In this document: positions 6,188-13,395 of the stretch, piece by piece
Layout of the letters: the number at the start of each line of letters is the position of its first letter
Position numbering within the stretch: position 1 is the stretch's first letter
Assembly: GCA_043814765.1 (NCBI GenBank)
Contig: JBDRJQ010000029.1
Coordinates: 96,001 to 160,000, forward strand
DNA: 64,000 bases
Direction of reading: 5' to 3'
Origin: Nanobdellota archaeon
Lineage (GTDB): Archaea; Aenigmatarchaeota; Aenigmatarchaeia; QMZP01
Program-made: the position numbers and the translations under genes
Notes under the pieces: generated by a model
What the model saw: only the letters and a program-made list of their open reading frames with translations
What the model was told of the DNA's origin: nothing
Database searches by the model: none

Positions 6188-7711
6188 TTATTTTAATCTA
6201 TTCTCATCCACAGTAAATCCTTTATTGTTTAATAAATTACAAAATCTTTCCATTGGTTCTATTTCAGAAAATGTTTGGAAGCAGGGATTTGGGTTTATAG
6301 GATTTCCCGCTAATAACGTGTGCTCATATCTTGATCCTATATATGTATAGTTGAAGATTCTCTCTGGTTGGCATTTGCTGATATCCCCTAATATAATAAA
6401 ATCTTCGTTTTCATAAACAACTGGATACTGGTGTTGATATGTCCTGTTGGATTCCCATTCAAATTCTTTTGTAGAAGAAAATAAAATTATATATCCGCCA
6501 CTATTTATAGCATCGTTTGGTGTGTATGGTGTCGGCTCTGTTGTTTTACCTAAATAATTTATTATTGGCCAAACATTAGAATATGCTCTGCAGGCATATA
6601 TTCCATAGTCATGCAATTTGTTTATAGATTCAATGTAGCTGTCTCTCATCTCGAAATTGTTCCCGCCTATTAGGCCATTAAATATTATAACATTTGATAA
6701 GATTATGAAGGTTATTGAAATCTTGAAAATTGTTTTTGATTTTTGCTTTATTTTGTATATACCTATTACAGAAAAATAGGCAATAGGTAGCGACATTGAA
6801 AAGAGGAAACGCATGATCTTTGTTGGGTTTAAAGCATACTGATAGAATGATAATATTAAAATCGCTAGCATAATTAAATTGATTTTTTCATTTTTTACAA
6901 ACCCTGTCAACTGTTGATTGATACAAGACGATTTCCAGCTGTAAAAGACACATATTAAACCTATGATAAGGAACGGCCAAAGATAAGTTATAGCACCATT
7001 GAAATGAATAAAATCAATAGGCTGGTACACCACACCTATTTTATTTTTGATGTTGAACACATAATTATCTAGTATTGAAGTAAACATGTTTCCTGAGCAG
7101 TAAAAATTATAAGCGAACCAGGGAATAAAGGTTAATATGAAAAACGATATGTTTTGTAATATTTTTTTAATATCTTTGGTGAGGAATAAAAGCGGTGTAA
7201 AGATAAAAAACGTGTATCTGGCTAAACACGCGAGGCCTAAAGAAAAACCAGCATACGGCTTCTTTTCTAAAAACAAAGCTAAGAAAAGCTCTAAAAAGGC
7301 AAGTGATAAAAGCTCTGTTCCTCCCCATAAACCGTAAAACAAAACAAATGGCGATAATGAAAAGAGATAAAAGAACAACTTATTTATTTTCATGGCGTTA
7401 GCTAGTCTTGTATTTGAATAGAAAAATAATACTGAAACAAATACTATATAGATGTATTCTGATATTGTCCATCCTAGTGGACTAAATAACCATATGAAAA
7501 AAGAGACCAGTGGCGGTCTAAATGGCTCATAGTAATTGCTTAAACCTGCCCAATACTTGGCATTTGAAACATAGCTAGTGAAATCCCAAACTATGTTAGC
7601 ATAATGGTGGTATAGAAAGAAAGTAGTTGATAATATAAAAATTATTATTATGTACTTGTTTTCAATTACAATTTTTTTAATTTTTTCCTTATCCAATGAT
7701 ATTATAACCAC
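6188..7711 (-). CDS. Polytopic membrane GT-C glycosyltransferase-like protein (ArnT/PMT-like)
   Basis: About 10 TM segments; WD in first loop, RPPL, TE, LARY and RF motifs typical of GT-C. Confidence 0.7.
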   Translation of the reverse strand: MVIISLDKEKIKKIVIENKYIIIIFILSTTFFLYHHYANIVWDFTSYVSNAKYWAGLSNYYEPFRPPLVSFFIWLFSPLGWTISEYIYIVFVSVLFFYSNTRLANAMKINKLFFYLFSLSPFVLFYGLWGGTELLSLAFLELFLALFLEKKPYAGFSLGLACLARYTFFIFTPLLFLTKDIKKILQNISFFILTFIPWFAYNFYCSGNMFTSILDNYVFNIKNKIGVVYQPIDFIHFNGAITYLWPFLIIGLICVFYSWKSSCINQQLTGFVKNEKINLIMLAILILSFYQYALNPTKIMRFLFSMSLPIAYFSVIGIYKIKQKSKTIFKISITFIILSNVIIFNGLIGGNNFEMRDSYIESINKLHDYGIYACRAYSNVWPIINYLGKTTEPTPYTPNDAINSGGYIILFSSTKEFEWESNRTYQHQYPVVYENEDFIILGDISKCQPERIFNYTYIGSRYEHTLLAGNPINPNPCFQTFSEIEPMERFCNLLNNKGFTVDENRLK

Positions 7712-7840
7712 CTGGCCAAAATCTGATATTTAATATCTTTATTTGAAAAGCACATTAAAAACGTTTGATAAAAATCAAATCAGCAACCATGCAAATAACT
7801 CATGAAAAACAGATAATATAAAATAACCACTGGAGTATCA

Positions 7841-7856
7841 AAAACCATTTATATAA
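7841..7856 (+). promoter_or_regulatory. BRE/TATA promoter of the nrdD operon
   Basis: AAAACCA followed by TTTATATA (7848-7855); expected TSS near 7875-7880; SD-like GAGGT at 7927-7931 before ATG 7939. Confidence 0.7.
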
Positions 7857-7871
7857 CTTCAACCTAATAAA

Positions 7872-7887
7872 CTACTACATCTTGGGG
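7872..7887. promoter_or_regulatory. NrdR box 1 (candidate operator overlapping the predicted TSS)
   Basis: ctaCTACATCTTGggg; core 7875-7884 fits the CwAnATnTwG core of the NrdR consensus acaCwAtATaTwGtg. Confidence 0.8.
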
Positions 7888-7903
7888 TATTTCAGTAGTG
7901 TTT

Positions 7904-7919
7904 ATACAAGATGTAGTAT
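7904..7919. promoter_or_regulatory. NrdR box 2 (32 bp downstream of box 1)
   Basis: ataCAAGATGTAGtat; core 7907-7916 is the exact reverse complement of the box 1 core. Confidence 0.8.
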
Positions 7920-7938
7920 TTATTTAGAGGTAGTAAAA

Positions 7939-10900
7939 ATGAAGTGTCCTTTCTGTTTTGATGAAGAAACACGGGTTATAGATAAAAGAGAAAGCGGAGA
8001 AAAAGGTATCAACAGGCGAAGAAGAGAGTGTTTGAGTTGTAAAAAAAGATTTACTACTTATGAAAGAATTGAAGGTGCCATAAGCAAGATTACTCATATA
8101 AAAAAAAGGGACGGCCAGATAGTTGAATTTGATCAAAACAAAATAACAGATGCCATATGGAAAGCTGTACAGGCTGTTGGCAATAAAGATAAAGAAGTAG
8201 CTAAAAAGGCTTCTGATAATGTTGTTAAAATTCTAGAAGAAAGGTTTGAAGGCAAAATTCCTGAAGTGGAACAAATTCAGGATATTGTTGAAGAATCGTT
8301 AATAGAAAACGGTTTAGCAGAAACTGCTAAAGCGTATATAATATACAGACAAAAAAAGATACAGGTAAGGGACACTAAAAAAACCTTAATAGATGTTATA
8401 GATACTATATCCGATTACCTTGATCAAAAGGATTGGAGAGTAAGAGAAAACAGCAATGAGCAATACTCTTTTTCAGGACTTCTATTATACACTGCTGGAA
8501 AGGTCATGGCAAACTATAATTTAACAGAGATGTACACCCCGGCAATGGCCGATGCACACAGGGCAGGTTATTTGCATATACATGATTTGTCACATGGTGT
8601 TATAGGATATTGTGCTGGTTGGTCGTTAAAGAATCTTTTATCCTGGGGGTTTGGTGGAATACCTAACAAAGTAGACTGCAAACCATCAAAACACATGAGT
8701 ACGGTAGTGCATCAAATGGTTAATTATATTGGATGCTTGCAGATGGAGTTTGCAGGTGCTCAGGCCTTTTCAACAGTTGATGTATTGCTAGCGCCCTTTG
8801 TAAGGGCAGATCAGATGACATTTAAACAGGTAAAGCAGGCTATGCAACAGTTGATTTTCTCGTTGAATATCCCTTCTAGATGGGGATGTTTTAGTAAGGA
8901 TACTGAATTATTAACAAATAAGGGATGGATGTTAGGAAAGGATCTTGAAAAGGGAGATATAATAGCAACTTTTAATAAAGACACTGAAGAGATAGAGTAT
9001 CTTCCTGTAAAAGAAATGACAAAATATAATTACAAAGGAAAGATGTGTAGATTGAAAAATAGGATTACGGATCAACTGGTTACACCAAATCATAGGATTT
9101 TGAGAAGAATACATAATTATAAGGAAGGCGTGTCTGAATCTAAGTATGTTTTTGAAGAGGCAGATAAATTAAAGACAAAGATTCCATTAGTTCCTCTTGG
9201 AGGAAAGTTTAAAGGTCTTGACCTTGATAAGGATCTTGTCAAATCACTTGCTTGGATAATATCAGAAGGCACACTTTGCAAGAATGAAAGAATCGGTATA
9301 CACCAATCATTTGTAAAGAATCCTGAAAATTGTCAAGATATACGAGACTCTTTAGATTCTATTGGTGTTGATTTTGATGAACAGATAAAACAATCTGGTT
9401 TCACAGAAAGATGGGATTGTTTGCGCATCAGAATGAGCAGACCAGATTCAAGAAATTTCTATGAAAATTATTTTCCTGATTATGTAAAAAGTATTCCAGA
9501 CGAACTTAGAAACCTTTCTACTCCGTTGGCCAGAACATTTATTGATACTTATATGAAAGCAGATGGATGGTATCCTGAAGGTAAAATATACACAAAAAAT
9601 AAAGACGATATAGATGCTTTCCAAGAAATTATAGCTAAAGCTGGTTGGGGAAGTACAGTATTGAAAAATAAAAATGGTATTTATGTGATAAGAGTAATAA
9701 AACACAATCACACTCAGATAACTTCTATAGATAATGAAGATTATGATGGACTTGTTTGGTGCCCGACAACAGACAACGGGACTGTTATAGTTAGAAGGAA
9801 AGGTAAGGTTTTTATAAGCGGCAATTCACAGTACCCATTTTCAAATCTAACATTTGATTGGTCAATACCAAAGGATCTTGAAAACGAACACGCAATTGTC
9901 GGAGGAACACCTCAAAGCTTTACTTATGGGGACCTTCAGGAAGAAACTAATATGATTAACAAAGCTTTTTTAGAAGTTATGCTTGAGGGTGACGCAAATG
10001 GAAGAACATTCTCGTTTCCAATACCAACATATAACTTAACAAAGGATTTCGATTGGGATGGTGAAAACGCAAATCTTCTGTTCGAAATGACTGCAAAATA
10101 CGGAACTCCTTATTTTCAAAATTATATAGGAAGTAATCTGGATCCAAGCTCTATAAGGGCAATGTGCTGCAGATTAAACATAAATCAAAAAGAGCTCGTA
10201 CAGAGACCAGGGCACATATTTGCAGCAGGCGATTCTACTGGTTCAATTGGTGTAGTAACAATGAATCTGAACAGGCTGGGTTTTGAGGCCAAAGATGAAA
10301 GCGAGTTTCATAATAAAATTGAACATTATATGAACATGGGTAAAGATTCTCTTGAAATTAAAAGAAGAGTTGTTGAGAAAAACTTAAAAAATGGGTTAAT
10401 GCCTTATACAAGAAGATATCTAGGGTCATTCAGTAATCATTTCTCTACAATAGGTTTGGTCGGAATGAACGAAGCGTGTCTAAACCTTATTGGAAAGGAT
10501 ATATCCACACCTGAAGGTAAAACTCTTACAATAAACATGTTGAAGTTTATGAGAGATGTTATCGGAGGTTATCAGCAAGAAACTGGTAATCTTTACAACT
10601 TGGAAGCAACGCCCGCTGAATCGGCTTCATATAGACTGGCAAGAGCTGATAAAAAAATGTATCCGAACATAATTACAAGCGGTGATAAACAACCCTTCTT
10701 AACAAACTCCACTCAGCTTCCTGTAAATTTTGGTGATGATGTCATATCCGCTTTAGAACATCAAAATGATATACAGTATTTATACACAGGAGGGACAATA
10801 TTTCATACATTCTTAGGTGAAAGGGTTAGCAGTGGAGAGTCATGCAAAAATCTTGTTAGAAAGATAGCAAACAACACTAGAATACCATATTTCAGTATAA

Positions 10901-10986
10901 CACCAACATTCAGTGTTTGCCCTGTTCATGGTTACATAAAAGGTGAACAGCATGTTTGCCCCTACAACAATAATGGAGGTAAATAA
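7939..10986 (+). CDS. nrdD: Anaerobic (class III) ribonucleoside-triphosphate reductase large subunit with N-terminal NrdR-type Zn ribbon and ATP cone; intein-containing; lacks glycyl-radical C-terminus
   Basis: Start reassigned to ATG 7939 (SD GAGGT). MKCPFC...RRRRECLSCKKRFTTYE, KRDG ATP cone, HIHDL, YCAGWS, AMCCRL finger loop, NLEATPAES, YTGGTIFH, SITPTFSVCPVHG. Confidence 0.95.
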   Translation: MKCPFCFDEETRVIDKRESGEKGINRRRRECLSCKKRFTTYERIEGAISKITHIKKRDGQIVEFDQNKITDAIWKAVQAVGNKDKEVAKKASDNVVKILEERFEGKIPEVEQIQDIVEESLIENGLAETAKAYIIYRQKKIQVRDTKKTLIDVIDTISDYLDQKDWRVRENSNEQYSFSGLLLYTAGKVMANYNLTEMYTPAMADAHRAGYLHIHDLSHGVIGYCAGWSLKNLLSWGFGGIPNKVDCKPSKHMSTVVHQMVNYIGCLQMEFAGAQAFSTVDVLLAPFVRADQMTFKQVKQAMQQLIFSLNIPSRWGCFSKDTELLTNKGWMLGKDLEKGDIIATFNKDTEEIEYLPVKEMTKYNYKGKMCRLKNRITDQLVTPNHRILRRIHNYKEGVSESKYVFEEADKLKTKIPLVPLGGKFKGLDLDKDLVKSLAWIISEGTLCKNERIGIHQSFVKNPENCQDIRDSLDSIGVDFDEQIKQSGFTERWDCLRIRMSRPDSRNFYENYFPDYVKSIPDELRNLSTPLARTFIDTYMKADGWYPEGKIYTKNKDDIDAFQEIIAKAGWGSTVLKNKNGIYVIRVIKHNHTQITSIDNEDYDGLVWCPTTDNGTVIVRRKGKVFISGNSQYPFSNLTFDWSIPKDLENEHAIVGGTPQSFTYGDLQEETNMINKAFLEVMLEGDANGRTFSFPIPTYNLTKDFDWDGENANLLFEMTAKYGTPYFQNYIGSNLDPSSIRAMCCRLNINQKELVQRPGHIFAAGDSTGSIGVVTMNLNRLGFEAKDESEFHNKIEHYMNMGKDSLEIKRRVVEKNLKNGLMPYTRRYLGSFSNHFSTIGLVGMNEACLNLIGKDISTPEGKTLTINMLKFMRDVIGGYQQETGNLYNLEATPAESASYRLARADKKMYPNIITSGDKQPFLTNSTQLPVNFGDDVISALEHQNDIQYLYTGGTIFHTFLGERVSSGESCKNLVRKIANNTRIPYFSITPTFSVCPVHGYIKGEQHVCPYNNNGGK
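8887..9825 (+). mobile_element. Intein (313 aa) with LAGLIDADG homing endonuclease in NrdD
   Basis: PSRWG|CFSKDTELLT ... VTPNH (block B), LAWIISEG and TYMKADG endonuclease motifs, ...KVFISGN|SQYPF; excision restores PSRWGSQYPFSN. Confidence 0.92.
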
Positions 10987-10987
10987 T

Positions 10988-11164
10988 ATGGAAAATGAAA
11001 AATGCAACAGAGAAACAGAAGTCTATTCAAGAATAGTCGGTTATTTTAGGCCTATAAAAAATTGGAATGACGGAAAGAAAGAGGAATTCGCACACAGGGT
11101 AACTTTTAGCGAAAAGAAAGCTCTGGAAAATGAAATTAAAACAAAAGTCGCTGTTACCCATTAG
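10988..11164 (+). CDS. Separately encoded NrdD C-terminal glycyl-radical domain (58 aa)
   Basis: EVYSRIVGYFRPIKNWNDGKKEEF carries the RxxGY glycyl-radical motif; own SD GGAGGT at 10975-10980; ATG two bases after the nrdD stop. Confidence 0.9.
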   Translation: MENEKCNRETEVYSRIVGYFRPIKNWNDGKKEEFAHRVTFSEKKALENEIKTKVAVTH

Positions 11165-11217: not shown

Positions 11218-13395
11218 ATGAAAATAAAGGGCTTTAGAAAAATGTCTCTAATAGACTATCCTGGCAAAACTTGCTCTATAGTTTTCTTGGGCGGATGCAA
11301 TTTCAAATGCCCGTTTTGTCAAAATCCGGATTTAATATGCAATGTTGATAAAATACCGGACATATCTGAAGATGAAATATTAAACTACATAAAAGGGAAA
11401 AGGAAGTGGATTGATGGTGTCTGTATGAGTGTGGCCAAAGATGAAAGAGTATTAATTAAAGAAAATAAAAATTTAAAAAACATACCAATCGAGATGCTTT
11501 GGAATGAAAATAAAAAAACAACATATCTGAGAAAATTCGAGTCACAAAAATGTGATAAAATTGAAGCTTTAACATTAAATCATAAATTTCAAAAAGTAAA
11601 TGAAATAATAAGACATAAAACCAAAGAAATATATAATATATTTTTGACTACCGGATATAAAGTTTCTGCTACTGGCAGTCATAGTGTTTTTACACTATCA
11701 AAAAATGGGTTTATAACCAAAAATGTTTCTGAACTGAAAACAAAAGACTATTTACTGACACCTAAAAAAATAGTGAATGACAATATTATTAAAAGAATAA
11801 ATATTTCAAATTATTTTGAGCAGGAATTAAAAAAATCAAAAAAAGAAATGCTTAAAAGAAAGTATTATTGGATTAAAATAATAAAAAATATTTTTAAATC
11901 AAAAATTAGTTATATTGAAGCTGCCAATAAATATAAAGTTAACAGGCATACTATTGTGAGGTATATAAATGCATACAAATTAGGTAAACTTGAAGAGTTT
12001 TGTTATAACTCTAAACCAAACTTATTATGGATTAAAAATGATTTTCTGTGGGTTGGAAAGAATAAGATAATGCGCACAAAAATTTCAGTAACAAAAGAGC
12101 TTGCAGAATTTTTAGGTTATACTGTAGCGGAAGGCTCTTTACGTAAGAAATCTTATACACTTTCTTTAGGTGATGAACCAAAACTGGCAGAAAGAGTACT
12201 TAGTTTATACAGAAAAATATTCAAATCAAATAAAGGGGTTATTAGAAAACGGAAGTCTAAAACAGGTAATCACCAATATAGTATAATCTTTGGTGGTAAA
12301 TACGTTGGTATGTTACTTGATAAGATTGTGGGTCATTTAGCTGTAAATAAAAAGATACCGGAAATTATATTCAACACAACCAAAACAAATCAGCGTGCGT
12401 TTATTGTTGCATTAAATGTAGGTGATGGTCATATAAGAGAAAGGATAACAAACTCTTCTGAAGAGTTCAGTATTAAAACTATAAGTAAGCAACTGGTATG
12501 TGATTTAATTATTCTTTTAAAATTTTTTGGAATACATGCACTTATTACTGAAGAGAAAGAAAAATATAATCAAAAGAGATCCTACAAAATACATTTTCAT
12601 GGTAATCAATACCAAAAGTTGAATTTAAAAAGGAAAGTAAAAACTAAATATTCATTTTTAACTAACATAGAAGGTATACCAAAAGAATTTTTGGATATGA
12701 AAGATCATATCAAATATAAAAAACAAAATAGAATAAACTCAGATGATGTTCCATTAAAATATAGAAATAAAGTATACGAAATAGCAAAAAAATGGAATAT
12801 ACTAAAAATTAAAAAAATAACAAAAAACAGAACAAATTTATATGTATATGATCTTGTTGTACCTGGTAATAATTCTTTTATCGGCGGTTTAGGACCGATT
12901 TTATTACATAACACAGGTGGTGAACCAACATTATACAATAATCTTCCTGAATTCATTAAAAAAATAAAAGATATGGGTTTTTTGGTAAAACTTGATACAA
13001 ACGGCTCTAATCCAGAAATACTAAAAAATCTCATAGACAAGAAACTTGTTGATTACATAGCAATGGATATAAAAGCCTCGCTAGAAAGATACAGCGAAGC
13101 TTCTGGGTGCGATGTTAACTTAGATGACATTAAGAAGAGTGTAGATATTATAAGAAAAAGCGGTGTTGATTATGAGTTTAGAACCACTATACTTCCAAGA
13201 CTCTTCACAAAAGATGATGCGATAAAAATTGGGAAATGGCTCAATGGATCAAAAAGATTTTTTCTTCAGCAATTCAGGCCAATGATAACATTGGACAGGT
13301 CTTTTGAGAATGAAAATTCATACAGTAAAAAAGAGTTGAGAGAGATAGCAGAGATTATGAAACCATATTTTGATTTAGTCGTTATACGAGACTGA
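11218..13395 (+). CDS. nrdG: Anaerobic RNR activating protein (radical SAM), intein-containing
   Basis: SLIDYPGK, CNFKCPFC (CxxxCxxC), TGGEPT, KLDTNGS, AMDIK, YEFRTT; about 230 aa after splicing. Confidence 0.94.
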   Translation: MKIKGFRKMSLIDYPGKTCSIVFLGGCNFKCPFCQNPDLICNVDKIPDISEDEILNYIKGKRKWIDGVCMSVAKDERVLIKENKNLKNIPIEMLWNENKKTTYLRKFESQKCDKIEALTLNHKFQKVNEIIRHKTKEIYNIFLTTGYKVSATGSHSVFTLSKNGFITKNVSELKTKDYLLTPKKIVNDNIIKRINISNYFEQELKKSKKEMLKRKYYWIKIIKNIFKSKISYIEAANKYKVNRHTIVRYINAYKLGKLEEFCYNSKPNLLWIKNDFLWVGKNKIMRTKISVTKELAEFLGYTVAEGSLRKKSYTLSLGDEPKLAERVLSLYRKIFKSNKGVIRKRKSKTGNHQYSIIFGGKYVGMLLDKIVGHLAVNKKIPEIIFNTTKTNQRAFIVALNVGDGHIRERITNSSEEFSIKTISKQLVCDLIILLKFFGIHALITEEKEKYNQKRSYKIHFHGNQYQKLNLKRKVKTKYSFLTNIEGIPKEFLDMKDHIKYKKQNRINSDDVPLKYRNKVYEIAKKWNILKIKKITKNRTNLYVYDLVVPGNNSFIGGLGPILLHNTGGEPTLYNNLPEFIKKIKDMGFLVKLDTNGSNPEILKNLIDKKLVDYIAMDIKASLERYSEASGCDVNLDDIKKSVDIIRKSGVDYEFRTTILPRLFTKDDAIKIGKWLNGSKRFFLQQFRPMITLDRSFENENSYSKKELREIAEIMKPYFDLVVIRD
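11428..12912 (+). mobile_element. Intein (495 aa) with LAGLIDADG endonuclease and HTH-like insert in NrdG
   Basis: DGVCM|SVAKDERVLI, block B ATGSHSVF, FLGYTVAEG and ALNVGDG, block F VYDLVVP, ...ILLHN|TGGEPT; markedly AT-rich. Confidence 0.92.

Follow-up and report, generated by a model that had tools for sequence, protein, structure and literature searches.

The window, by which we mean the whole analysed stretch of 64,000 nucleotides, comes from an archaeal genome of 859,335 bases in 39 contigs, with 37.4% G+C and 88.2% completeness. Its closest named relatives are metagenome-assembled genomes that bear the labels Nanoarchaeota archaeon (83% identity across residues 1-224 of the NrdD protein described below) and Candidatus Woesearchaeota archaeon (66%). 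The locus studied here consists of an intergenic region and, downstream of it, the genes of a class III ribonucleotide reductase and its activase. Its features are as follows.

7848 to 7855, forward strand: TATA box TTTATATA of the nrdD promoter, recognised by sequence, in a block kept in the sister species
7872 to 7887, no strand: NrdR box 1, CTACTACATCTTGGGG, 11.8 bits, core kept in the sister species, predicted to cover the transcription start
7888 to 7903, no strand: linker of 16 bp, 15 bp and of diverged sequence in the sister species
7904 to 7919, no strand: NrdR box 2, ATACAAGATGTAGTAT, 16.2 bits, kept in the sister species
7927 to 7931, forward strand: putative Shine-Dalgarno-like element GAGGT, 7 nt 5' of the start codon, kept in the sister species
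7939 to 10986, forward strand: nrdD, large open reading frame (ORF) of 1015 aa, identified by profile matches
7939 to 8064, forward strand: NrdR zinc ribbon of NrdD, aa 1-42, Zn_ribbon_NrdR, E 1.5e-15
8095 to 8355, forward strand: single ATP-cone of NrdD, aa 53-139, identified by profile match
8887 to 9825, forward strand: intein-like insertion in the NrdD core, aa 317-629, borders set by comparison with uninterrupted homologues
10988 to 11164, forward strand: ORF of 58 aa, glycyl-radical end of NrdD with the RIVGY motif, PF13597 positions 526-562, E 1.1e-10
11218 to 13395, forward strand: nrdG, radical SAM activase with an intein, matched by Radical_SAM, Intein_splicing and LAGLIDADG_3

The NrdD core is matched by PF13597 (E 1.2e-153) and by NF006126 (949.5 bits, cut-off 548), and the zinc ribbon, the ATP-cone and the NRDD domain lie in one open frame. 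Class III reductases are recognised by an adjacent activase gene, present here as nrdG, and by a glycyl-radical motif on the same chain; in the window this motif, RIVGY, is located on a separate ORF. The 58-aa ORF starts one base past the nrdD stop codon, with the sequence GGAGGT (10975-10980) 7 nt upstream of it. The large ORF ends at 10986 after the residues NNGGK. The split is shared with the sister species, which has a separate 61-aa ORF, and with the proteins P0002 and P0003. In the more distant homologues P0006 and P0015, NrdD is continuous. A separately encoded glycyl-radical domain looks unusual for a class III reductase. The insertion in the core comprises 313 aa, extends from Cys to Asn and is followed by Ser; the NrdD of the sister species (P0002, 1443 aa) contains a second insertion. 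No class I/II reductase barrel was found in the genome, at its 88.2% completeness, and the single NrdD is the only ribonucleotide reductase found there.

Upstream of the start codon at 7939, the two boxes are separated by 32 bp from start to start and likewise from centre to centre. Their cores, CTACATCTTG (7875-7884) and CAAGATGTAG (7907-7916), both fall within a perfect 12-nt inverted repeat formed by TACTACATCTTG (7873-7884) and CAAGATGTAGTA (7907-7918), and the wider repeat arms reach 21 nt (7864-7884 and 7907-7927) with 86% complementarity. The preliminary description of this DNA, made from the sequence alone, had already recognised two NrdR-box-like sites 32 bp apart with these cores and this repeat, and had placed the cores 20 nt after the TATA box. 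Both statements are borne out: the 10-nt core of box 1 begins 20 nt past the last base of the TATA box, which leaves a gap of 16 nt to the full 16-bp box. Published NrdR sites consist of two partly palindromic 16-bp boxes joined by a 15-16 bp linker of free sequence, and the positions C4, A6, A8, T9, T11, and G13 of the box are described as highly conserved (PMC13584703). The window likewise has two partly palindromic 16-bp boxes and a 16-bp linker, and all six positions are occupied as published in box 1 (6/6) and in box 2 (6/6). The weak points of box 1 are its modest score of 11.8 bits and its GGG flank, which is unlike the consensus of the relatives. The perfect 12-nt symmetry of the two sites fits the two-fold symmetry of the DNA-bound NrdR tetramer as described in PMC9110341.

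The position of the transcription start was predicted from the placement of TATA boxes in this genome. Upstream of 485 long ORFs, TTTATATA-like motifs are most frequent 21-40 nt 5' of the first ATG, with 87 occurrences in the two bins covering this interval and 4-24 in each other bin, a distribution that fits short-leader archaeal promoters. The start of nrdD is therefore predicted near 7879, inside box 1, and the 5' arm of the inverted repeat would then not be fully transcribed. The overlap of the operator with the transcription start is thus a prediction from the TATA distance. Archaeal repressors that bind just 3' of the TATA box commonly block the recruitment of RNA polymerase. The same intergenic region contains a direct repeat of 22 nt with 77% identity (7779-7800 and 7837-7858, 58 bp apart), and the TATA box falls inside its second copy.

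Paired boxes among relatives and across the genome

Of 41 genomes belonging to the same order, 33 contain the NrdR ribbon family PF22811, each in a single copy, and the open frame that holds it has at least 617 aa in 18 genomes and at most 201 aa in 15. The 300 nt 5' of each gene were collected, leaving out the bacterial NrdR L060 as well as L033, which comes from the L024 genome; the window was kept separate, and 30 related loci remained. These regions were searched for two 16-mers 30-33 bp apart, and the total mismatches to the seed ACACAATATATTGTGT were counted. The seed itself is present verbatim in loci L004, L008, and L017. A box pair with at most 11 mismatches was found in 26 of the 30 loci and with at most 10 in 25 of these, while among 1,500 shuffled sequences 15 reached 11 mismatches and none reached 10. 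No recognisable pair was observed within 300 nt at the remaining four loci (L009, L013, L029, and L032). The search was extended to 22 additional loci, taken from other families of the class and absent from the training set, and 16 of them scored above the best of 880 shuffles (12.7 bits).

The arrangement of the pair is also maintained. Over 27 loci, that is, the 26 relatives and the window, the spacing is 32 bp in 15, 31 bp in 8, and 33 bp in 4. All six conserved positions are retained by box 1 in 17 of the 27 loci and by box 2 in 21, and the TATA octamer TTTATATA, with 0-2 mismatches, lies 6-34 nt 5' of box 1 in 26 of the 27. The sister species keeps the TATA block, the two boxes and the sequence between box 2 and the start codon, and its linker has diverged and is one base shorter (15 bp). 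The same pair of boxes, 31-33 bp apart and 3' of a TATA box, recurs before NrdR-type genes across this archaeal phylum. The preliminary description had spoken of a bacterial operator grammar transplanted onto an archaeal promoter. The archaeal host and the TATA-type promoter stand. The word transplanted needs to be qualified, since the NrdR ribbon is widespread in the phylum (146 of 301 genomes) and has apparently long been resident there.

To score the sites, a symmetrised weight matrix was built from 50 sites of the 25 best related loci, with the window excluded. Of 858,750 positions scanned in the genome, box 2 ranks 3rd (16.2 bits) and box 1 17th (11.8 bits). Together they reach 27.9 bits, more than any other pair in the genome that is spaced 30-33 bp apart. 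A single further pair exceeds the threshold of 14, a weak one of 15.3 bits between short ORFs (C20:2364), 12.6 bits below the pair in the window. For comparison, the best pair in the 880 shuffles, which were made from 22 other upstream regions, scored 12.7. The proposal that the two sites should stand out from background when scored with a matrix is therefore upheld. The companion scan for further paired operators gave no pair at thyX, dut, other reductase genes or replication genes anywhere in the assembled genome, and no further 16-mer scored above 0 within 7700-7959. The inverted repeat by itself carries less information: perfect 12-nt inverted repeats with a loop of 3-40 nt occur twice in the window and 0-3 times in each of 20 shuffles of it. 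Thus, the bare repeat is not beyond chance, whereas chance falls far short of explaining the match to the box motif. A chance match of the boxes was rejected on the matrix ranks and the pair score.

Single boxes of higher score occur outside the window. The best one, ATACAACATATTGTGT (21.3 bits, G000:C29:171814-171829, L066 515-530), ends 2 nt before the ATG of polB, the gene of a family B DNA polymerase, and is followed 44 bp downstream by a weak site of 2.9 bits. The sister species has a box of 22.6 bits at the same place, and none of 28 other genera has one (2 of 30 loci in all). The polB box may be a genus-specific extension of the NrdR regulon to replication by means of a single strong box. 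Within approximately 70 nt before the polB start of many relatives (loci L070-L093), a GTTTTTATTG-like motif was observed, perhaps a promoter element particular to polB. The second-best single box, ACACAACATGTTGTGG (20.3 bits, G000:C28:71192-71207, L067 1393-1408), lies 6 nt beyond a gene and is followed by a stretch of about 1.5 kb that is free of long ORFs; neither a partner box nor an Rfam match was found at this locus.

The zinc ribbon and ATP-cone of the reductase

The genome encodes one NrdR ribbon scoring above the family cut-off, and it is the one on the fused NrdD, a feature that the preliminary description of the two sites does not mention. The match to PF22811 reaches 57.2 bits against a cut-off of 27.2 and includes two CxxC motifs (C3, C6, C31, C34) and the arginines R26-29. 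The N-terminus of NrdD also matches solved NrdR structures (E 1e-12). In S. coelicolor NrdR, R12, R26-29, and R37 are described as contacting the DNA backbone and D15 and R17 the major groove (PMC9110341). All of these residues are present under the same numbers in the window protein. Alignment of 50 fused proteins showed that C3, C6, D15, R17, R26-29, C31, C34, R37, F38, T39, T40, and E42 are invariant (50/50). The invariance of the DNA-contact residues argues for continuing selection on DNA binding.

Beyond the ribbon, the likeness to NrdR fades. The model TIGR00244 covers residues 1-105 with 70 bits, below its cut-off of 124.65, and the stand-alone NrdRs of relatives align to residues 1-78 only. 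Considering this score and the chain length of 1015 aa, we classed the protein as an NrdR-ribbon fusion and not as an NrdR orthologue. For residues 50-146, the best structural-database matches are reductase cones; residues 49-145 match the Prevotella copri NrdD (E 1.5e-06). The cone of the fusion thus resembles reductase cones more than NrdR cones. The rule that ATP plus dATP gives the DNA-binding tetramer need therefore not hold here, and the nucleotide logic may differ. A four-copy complex prediction for residues 1-150, based on the alignment of 50 fused proteins, scored 0.40 against a mark of 0.42, and one unrelated control scored 0.46.

To view the fusion in its wider setting, we examined a phylum sample of 301 genomes. 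A ribbon was found in 146, always exactly one, either free or fused and never both. The 146 ribbons lie in frames of at least 500 aa (29), of 325-413 aa (4, possibly cut by contig ends) and of at most 230 aa (113). Free ribbons and fused ribbons thus stand in for one another. In 28 of 32 loci with a free nrdR, the gene immediately after it encodes an ATP-cone reductase. Three types of fusion were distinguished: ribbon, two cones, and NrdD (L005, L011, L013, and L021); ribbon, one cone, and NrdD (the window and L032); and ribbon, cone, and a class I/II barrel (L014). The adjacency of free nrdR and reductase genes, taken with these three types, suggests fusion of neighbouring genes and then loss of one cone.

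The protein database yielded 123 fused clusters of 558-1777 aa (E at most 0.001) among 126 candidates. Their labels include Woesearchaeota, Nanoarchaeia, and Asgard group archaeon, and two clusters carry the JGI name [quoted passage not shown]. The ribbon is fused to class III reductases in many DPANN archaea and, going by the database labels, in some Asgard archaea, and to a class I/II-type reductase in at least one lineage. P0109, P0115, and P0120 each combine an NrdR ribbon and an ATP-cone with a different partner (tRNA synthetase, Cpn60 domain, or topoisomerase domain); gene calling or assembly may have created them artificially, or they may be further fusions.

The reader of the operator

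NrdR is the main transcriptional switch of bacterial dNTP supply, and its mechanism has been solved only recently. According to PMC9110341, each box is bound by a pair of ribbons, and the ribbon pairs are linked through pairs of cones. Bacterial NrdR operators, as documented for S. coelicolor nrdRJ and nrdAB and for E. coli nrdAB, nrdHIEF, and nrdDG, have the same boxes, the same six positions, and a linker of 15-16 bp. They lie over the core promoter of a reductase operon, as is predicted for the pair in the window, and the operon often includes the regulator's own gene; the bacterial zinc ribbon carries the same DNA-contact residues according to the published accounts. The differences concern the promoter and the protein. 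Bacterial NrdR promoters are of the -35/-10 type, whereas that of the window is of the archaeal TATA type. Bacterial NrdR is a free protein of 140-220 aa, whereas the ribbon of the window is located on the reductase itself, with a single reductase-like cone.

For archaea, the published statements vary: NrdR is called rare (PMC9110341, PMC12176259), is given for 22% of archaeal genomes (PMC13584703), and is stated to be absent in a 2025 preprint (10.1101/2025.03.28.645925). Haloarchaeal nrdR-nrdB-nrdA and nrdR-nrdA-nrdB operons were listed in 2010 (PMC3019208). As described there and in PMC13584703, they resemble the window in that NrdR lies beside reductase genes. They differ in that the haloarchaeal genes are free, accompany class I reductases, and are ascribed to bacterial transfer, whereas the window has a DPANN host, a class III reductase, and a single chain. 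The Prevotella copri NrdD (PDB 8P23 and related entries) is, like the window protein, a class III enzyme with an N-terminal cone that binds ATP or dATP (PMC11226230); it differs from the window protein in lacking a zinc ribbon, and it does not bind DNA. In the main texts searched, where supplements may list fused forms or archaeal sites, we found no paper joining NrdR with DPANN or Woesearchaeota and no description of a ribbon-reductase fusion. What appears to be new here is the enzyme-borne NrdR ribbon with its operator on an archaeal promoter; NrdR in archaea was already known.

The inverted repeat could act at the level of RNA instead of DNA, as a hairpin in the 5' leader that governs stability, translation, or attenuation, with the likeness to NrdR boxes being secondary. 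The RNA from 7864 to 7941 folds at -18.6 kcal/mol (z -3.1), which only 1 of 200 shuffles equalled, the arms extend over 21 nt at 86% complementarity, and in 17 of 27 loci at least 10 pairs connect the two boxes in the minimum-energy fold. However, two neighbouring copies of one palindromic motif pair automatically, so that folding alone cannot decide. The comparison of inverted with direct identity is more telling. Of the 27 loci, 7 have a box 1 that matches the reverse complement of box 2 better than box 2 as it stands, 9 have one that matches both equally well, and 11 have one that matches box 2 better; the mean identities are 10.7/16 to the reverse complement and 11.0/16 to box 2 as it stands. 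In 8 of the 27 loci, the fold contains no box-to-box pairing at all. What is conserved is the specific sequence and the 31-33 bp spacing. Neither the linker sequence nor the pairing between the boxes is conserved, and this speaks against selection for an RNA hairpin. The start predicted near 7879 falls within the 5' arm, and at loci where the TATA box and box 1 are 6-10 nt apart, box 1 would not be transcribed in full. The Rfam search of the leader returned no family match, its one hit (E 0.56) lying far below the gathering score. On the inverted-versus-direct comparison, the geometry, and the Rfam result, the hairpin was rejected as the main reading, and we consider it quite improbable. The preliminary description had offered it as an alternative that would be favoured if homologous loci conserved base pairing and not the box sequence or its spacing; the relatives display the opposite pattern. 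That the operator is a disused relic of an ancestral nrdR-nrdD operon, or a chance match, would agree with the drift of box 1 to 11.8 bits and with the four related loci that have no recognisable pair. Against it, both boxes retain all six critical positions, they were kept while the linker diverged in the sister species, and the pair leads the genome by 12.6 bits. We regard this explanation as the least credible of those considered, with very little probability.

Another explanation accepts the operator as real and assigns it to a separate stand-alone NrdR, encoded either in the unassembled part of the genome or by a host cell, with the ribbon of NrdD otherwise employed or idle. A free NrdR of this organism could have been missed in a genome that is 88.2% complete and divided into 39 contigs, and the phylum has many stand-alone NrdRs (113 of 146 ribbon matches in frames of at most 230 aa). 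This is countered by the finding that all 146 ribbon genomes have exactly one ribbon, free or fused, and by the 50/50 invariance of the DNA-contact residues in the fused ribbons. A separate reader is thus unlikely in our judgement. The best explanation of the locus is that this promoter drives an operon of nrdD, the glycyl-radical ORF, and nrdG in a DPANN genome of the Nanoarchaeota/Woesearchaeales type. We consider it likely that the boxes constitute a working tandem NrdR-type operator on an archaeal TATA-type promoter, and that it is read by the fused reductase itself, in which the NrdR zinc ribbon is joined to the enzyme's own ATP-cone.

The reductase would in that case probably switch off its own gene in a nucleotide-dependent manner by binding this operator. 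A possible course of events is as follows. Rising dATP would cause the ATP-cones to change the association of the enzyme molecules. Two NrdD dimers would associate and thereby place pairs of zinc ribbons on box 1 and box 2, which are separated by three turns of the helix and related by two-fold symmetry. For this, two bulky dimers would have to fit four ribbons onto a sharply bent operator. Protein on box 1, over the predicted start, would block either the recruitment of RNA polymerase or initiation. Inhibition of the enzyme and arrest of its synthesis would then answer to one and the same nucleotide signal. When dATP occupies the cone of P. copri NrdD, the enzyme is inhibited and moves from dimers towards tetramers, whose role the authors call unclear (PMC11226230). 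For the window protein, we lean somewhat towards the fuller form of this proposal, namely that the reductase is its own transcription factor, that one cone sets both catalysis and promoter occupancy, and that the dATP-favoured tetramer is the DNA-binding form on the boxes.

Enzymes that control their own genes are known from other systems. In BirA, PutA, and NadR, one polypeptide catalyses a reaction and binds its own operator, and the two activities are coupled by a ligand. Their folds and DNA-binding domains are unrelated to those described here, and to our knowledge none of them is a ribonucleotide reductase. If the proposal is true, the fused NrdD would join them as a new example of the few enzymes that act as repressors of their own genes.

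The locus pairs the operator grammar of NrdR with archaeal TATA-type machinery and makes the DNA-binding domain part of the regulated enzyme. The action of a bacterial-type repressor at an archaeal promoter can thus be tested here directly. If true, the proposal would also offer a natural experiment on how ATP-cones turn the ATP/dATP ratio into a change of assembly. If the enzyme does bind its own operator, a single nucleotide sensor would serve both the allosteric and the transcriptional control of dNTP supply, which would be economical for a genome of less than 1 Mb.
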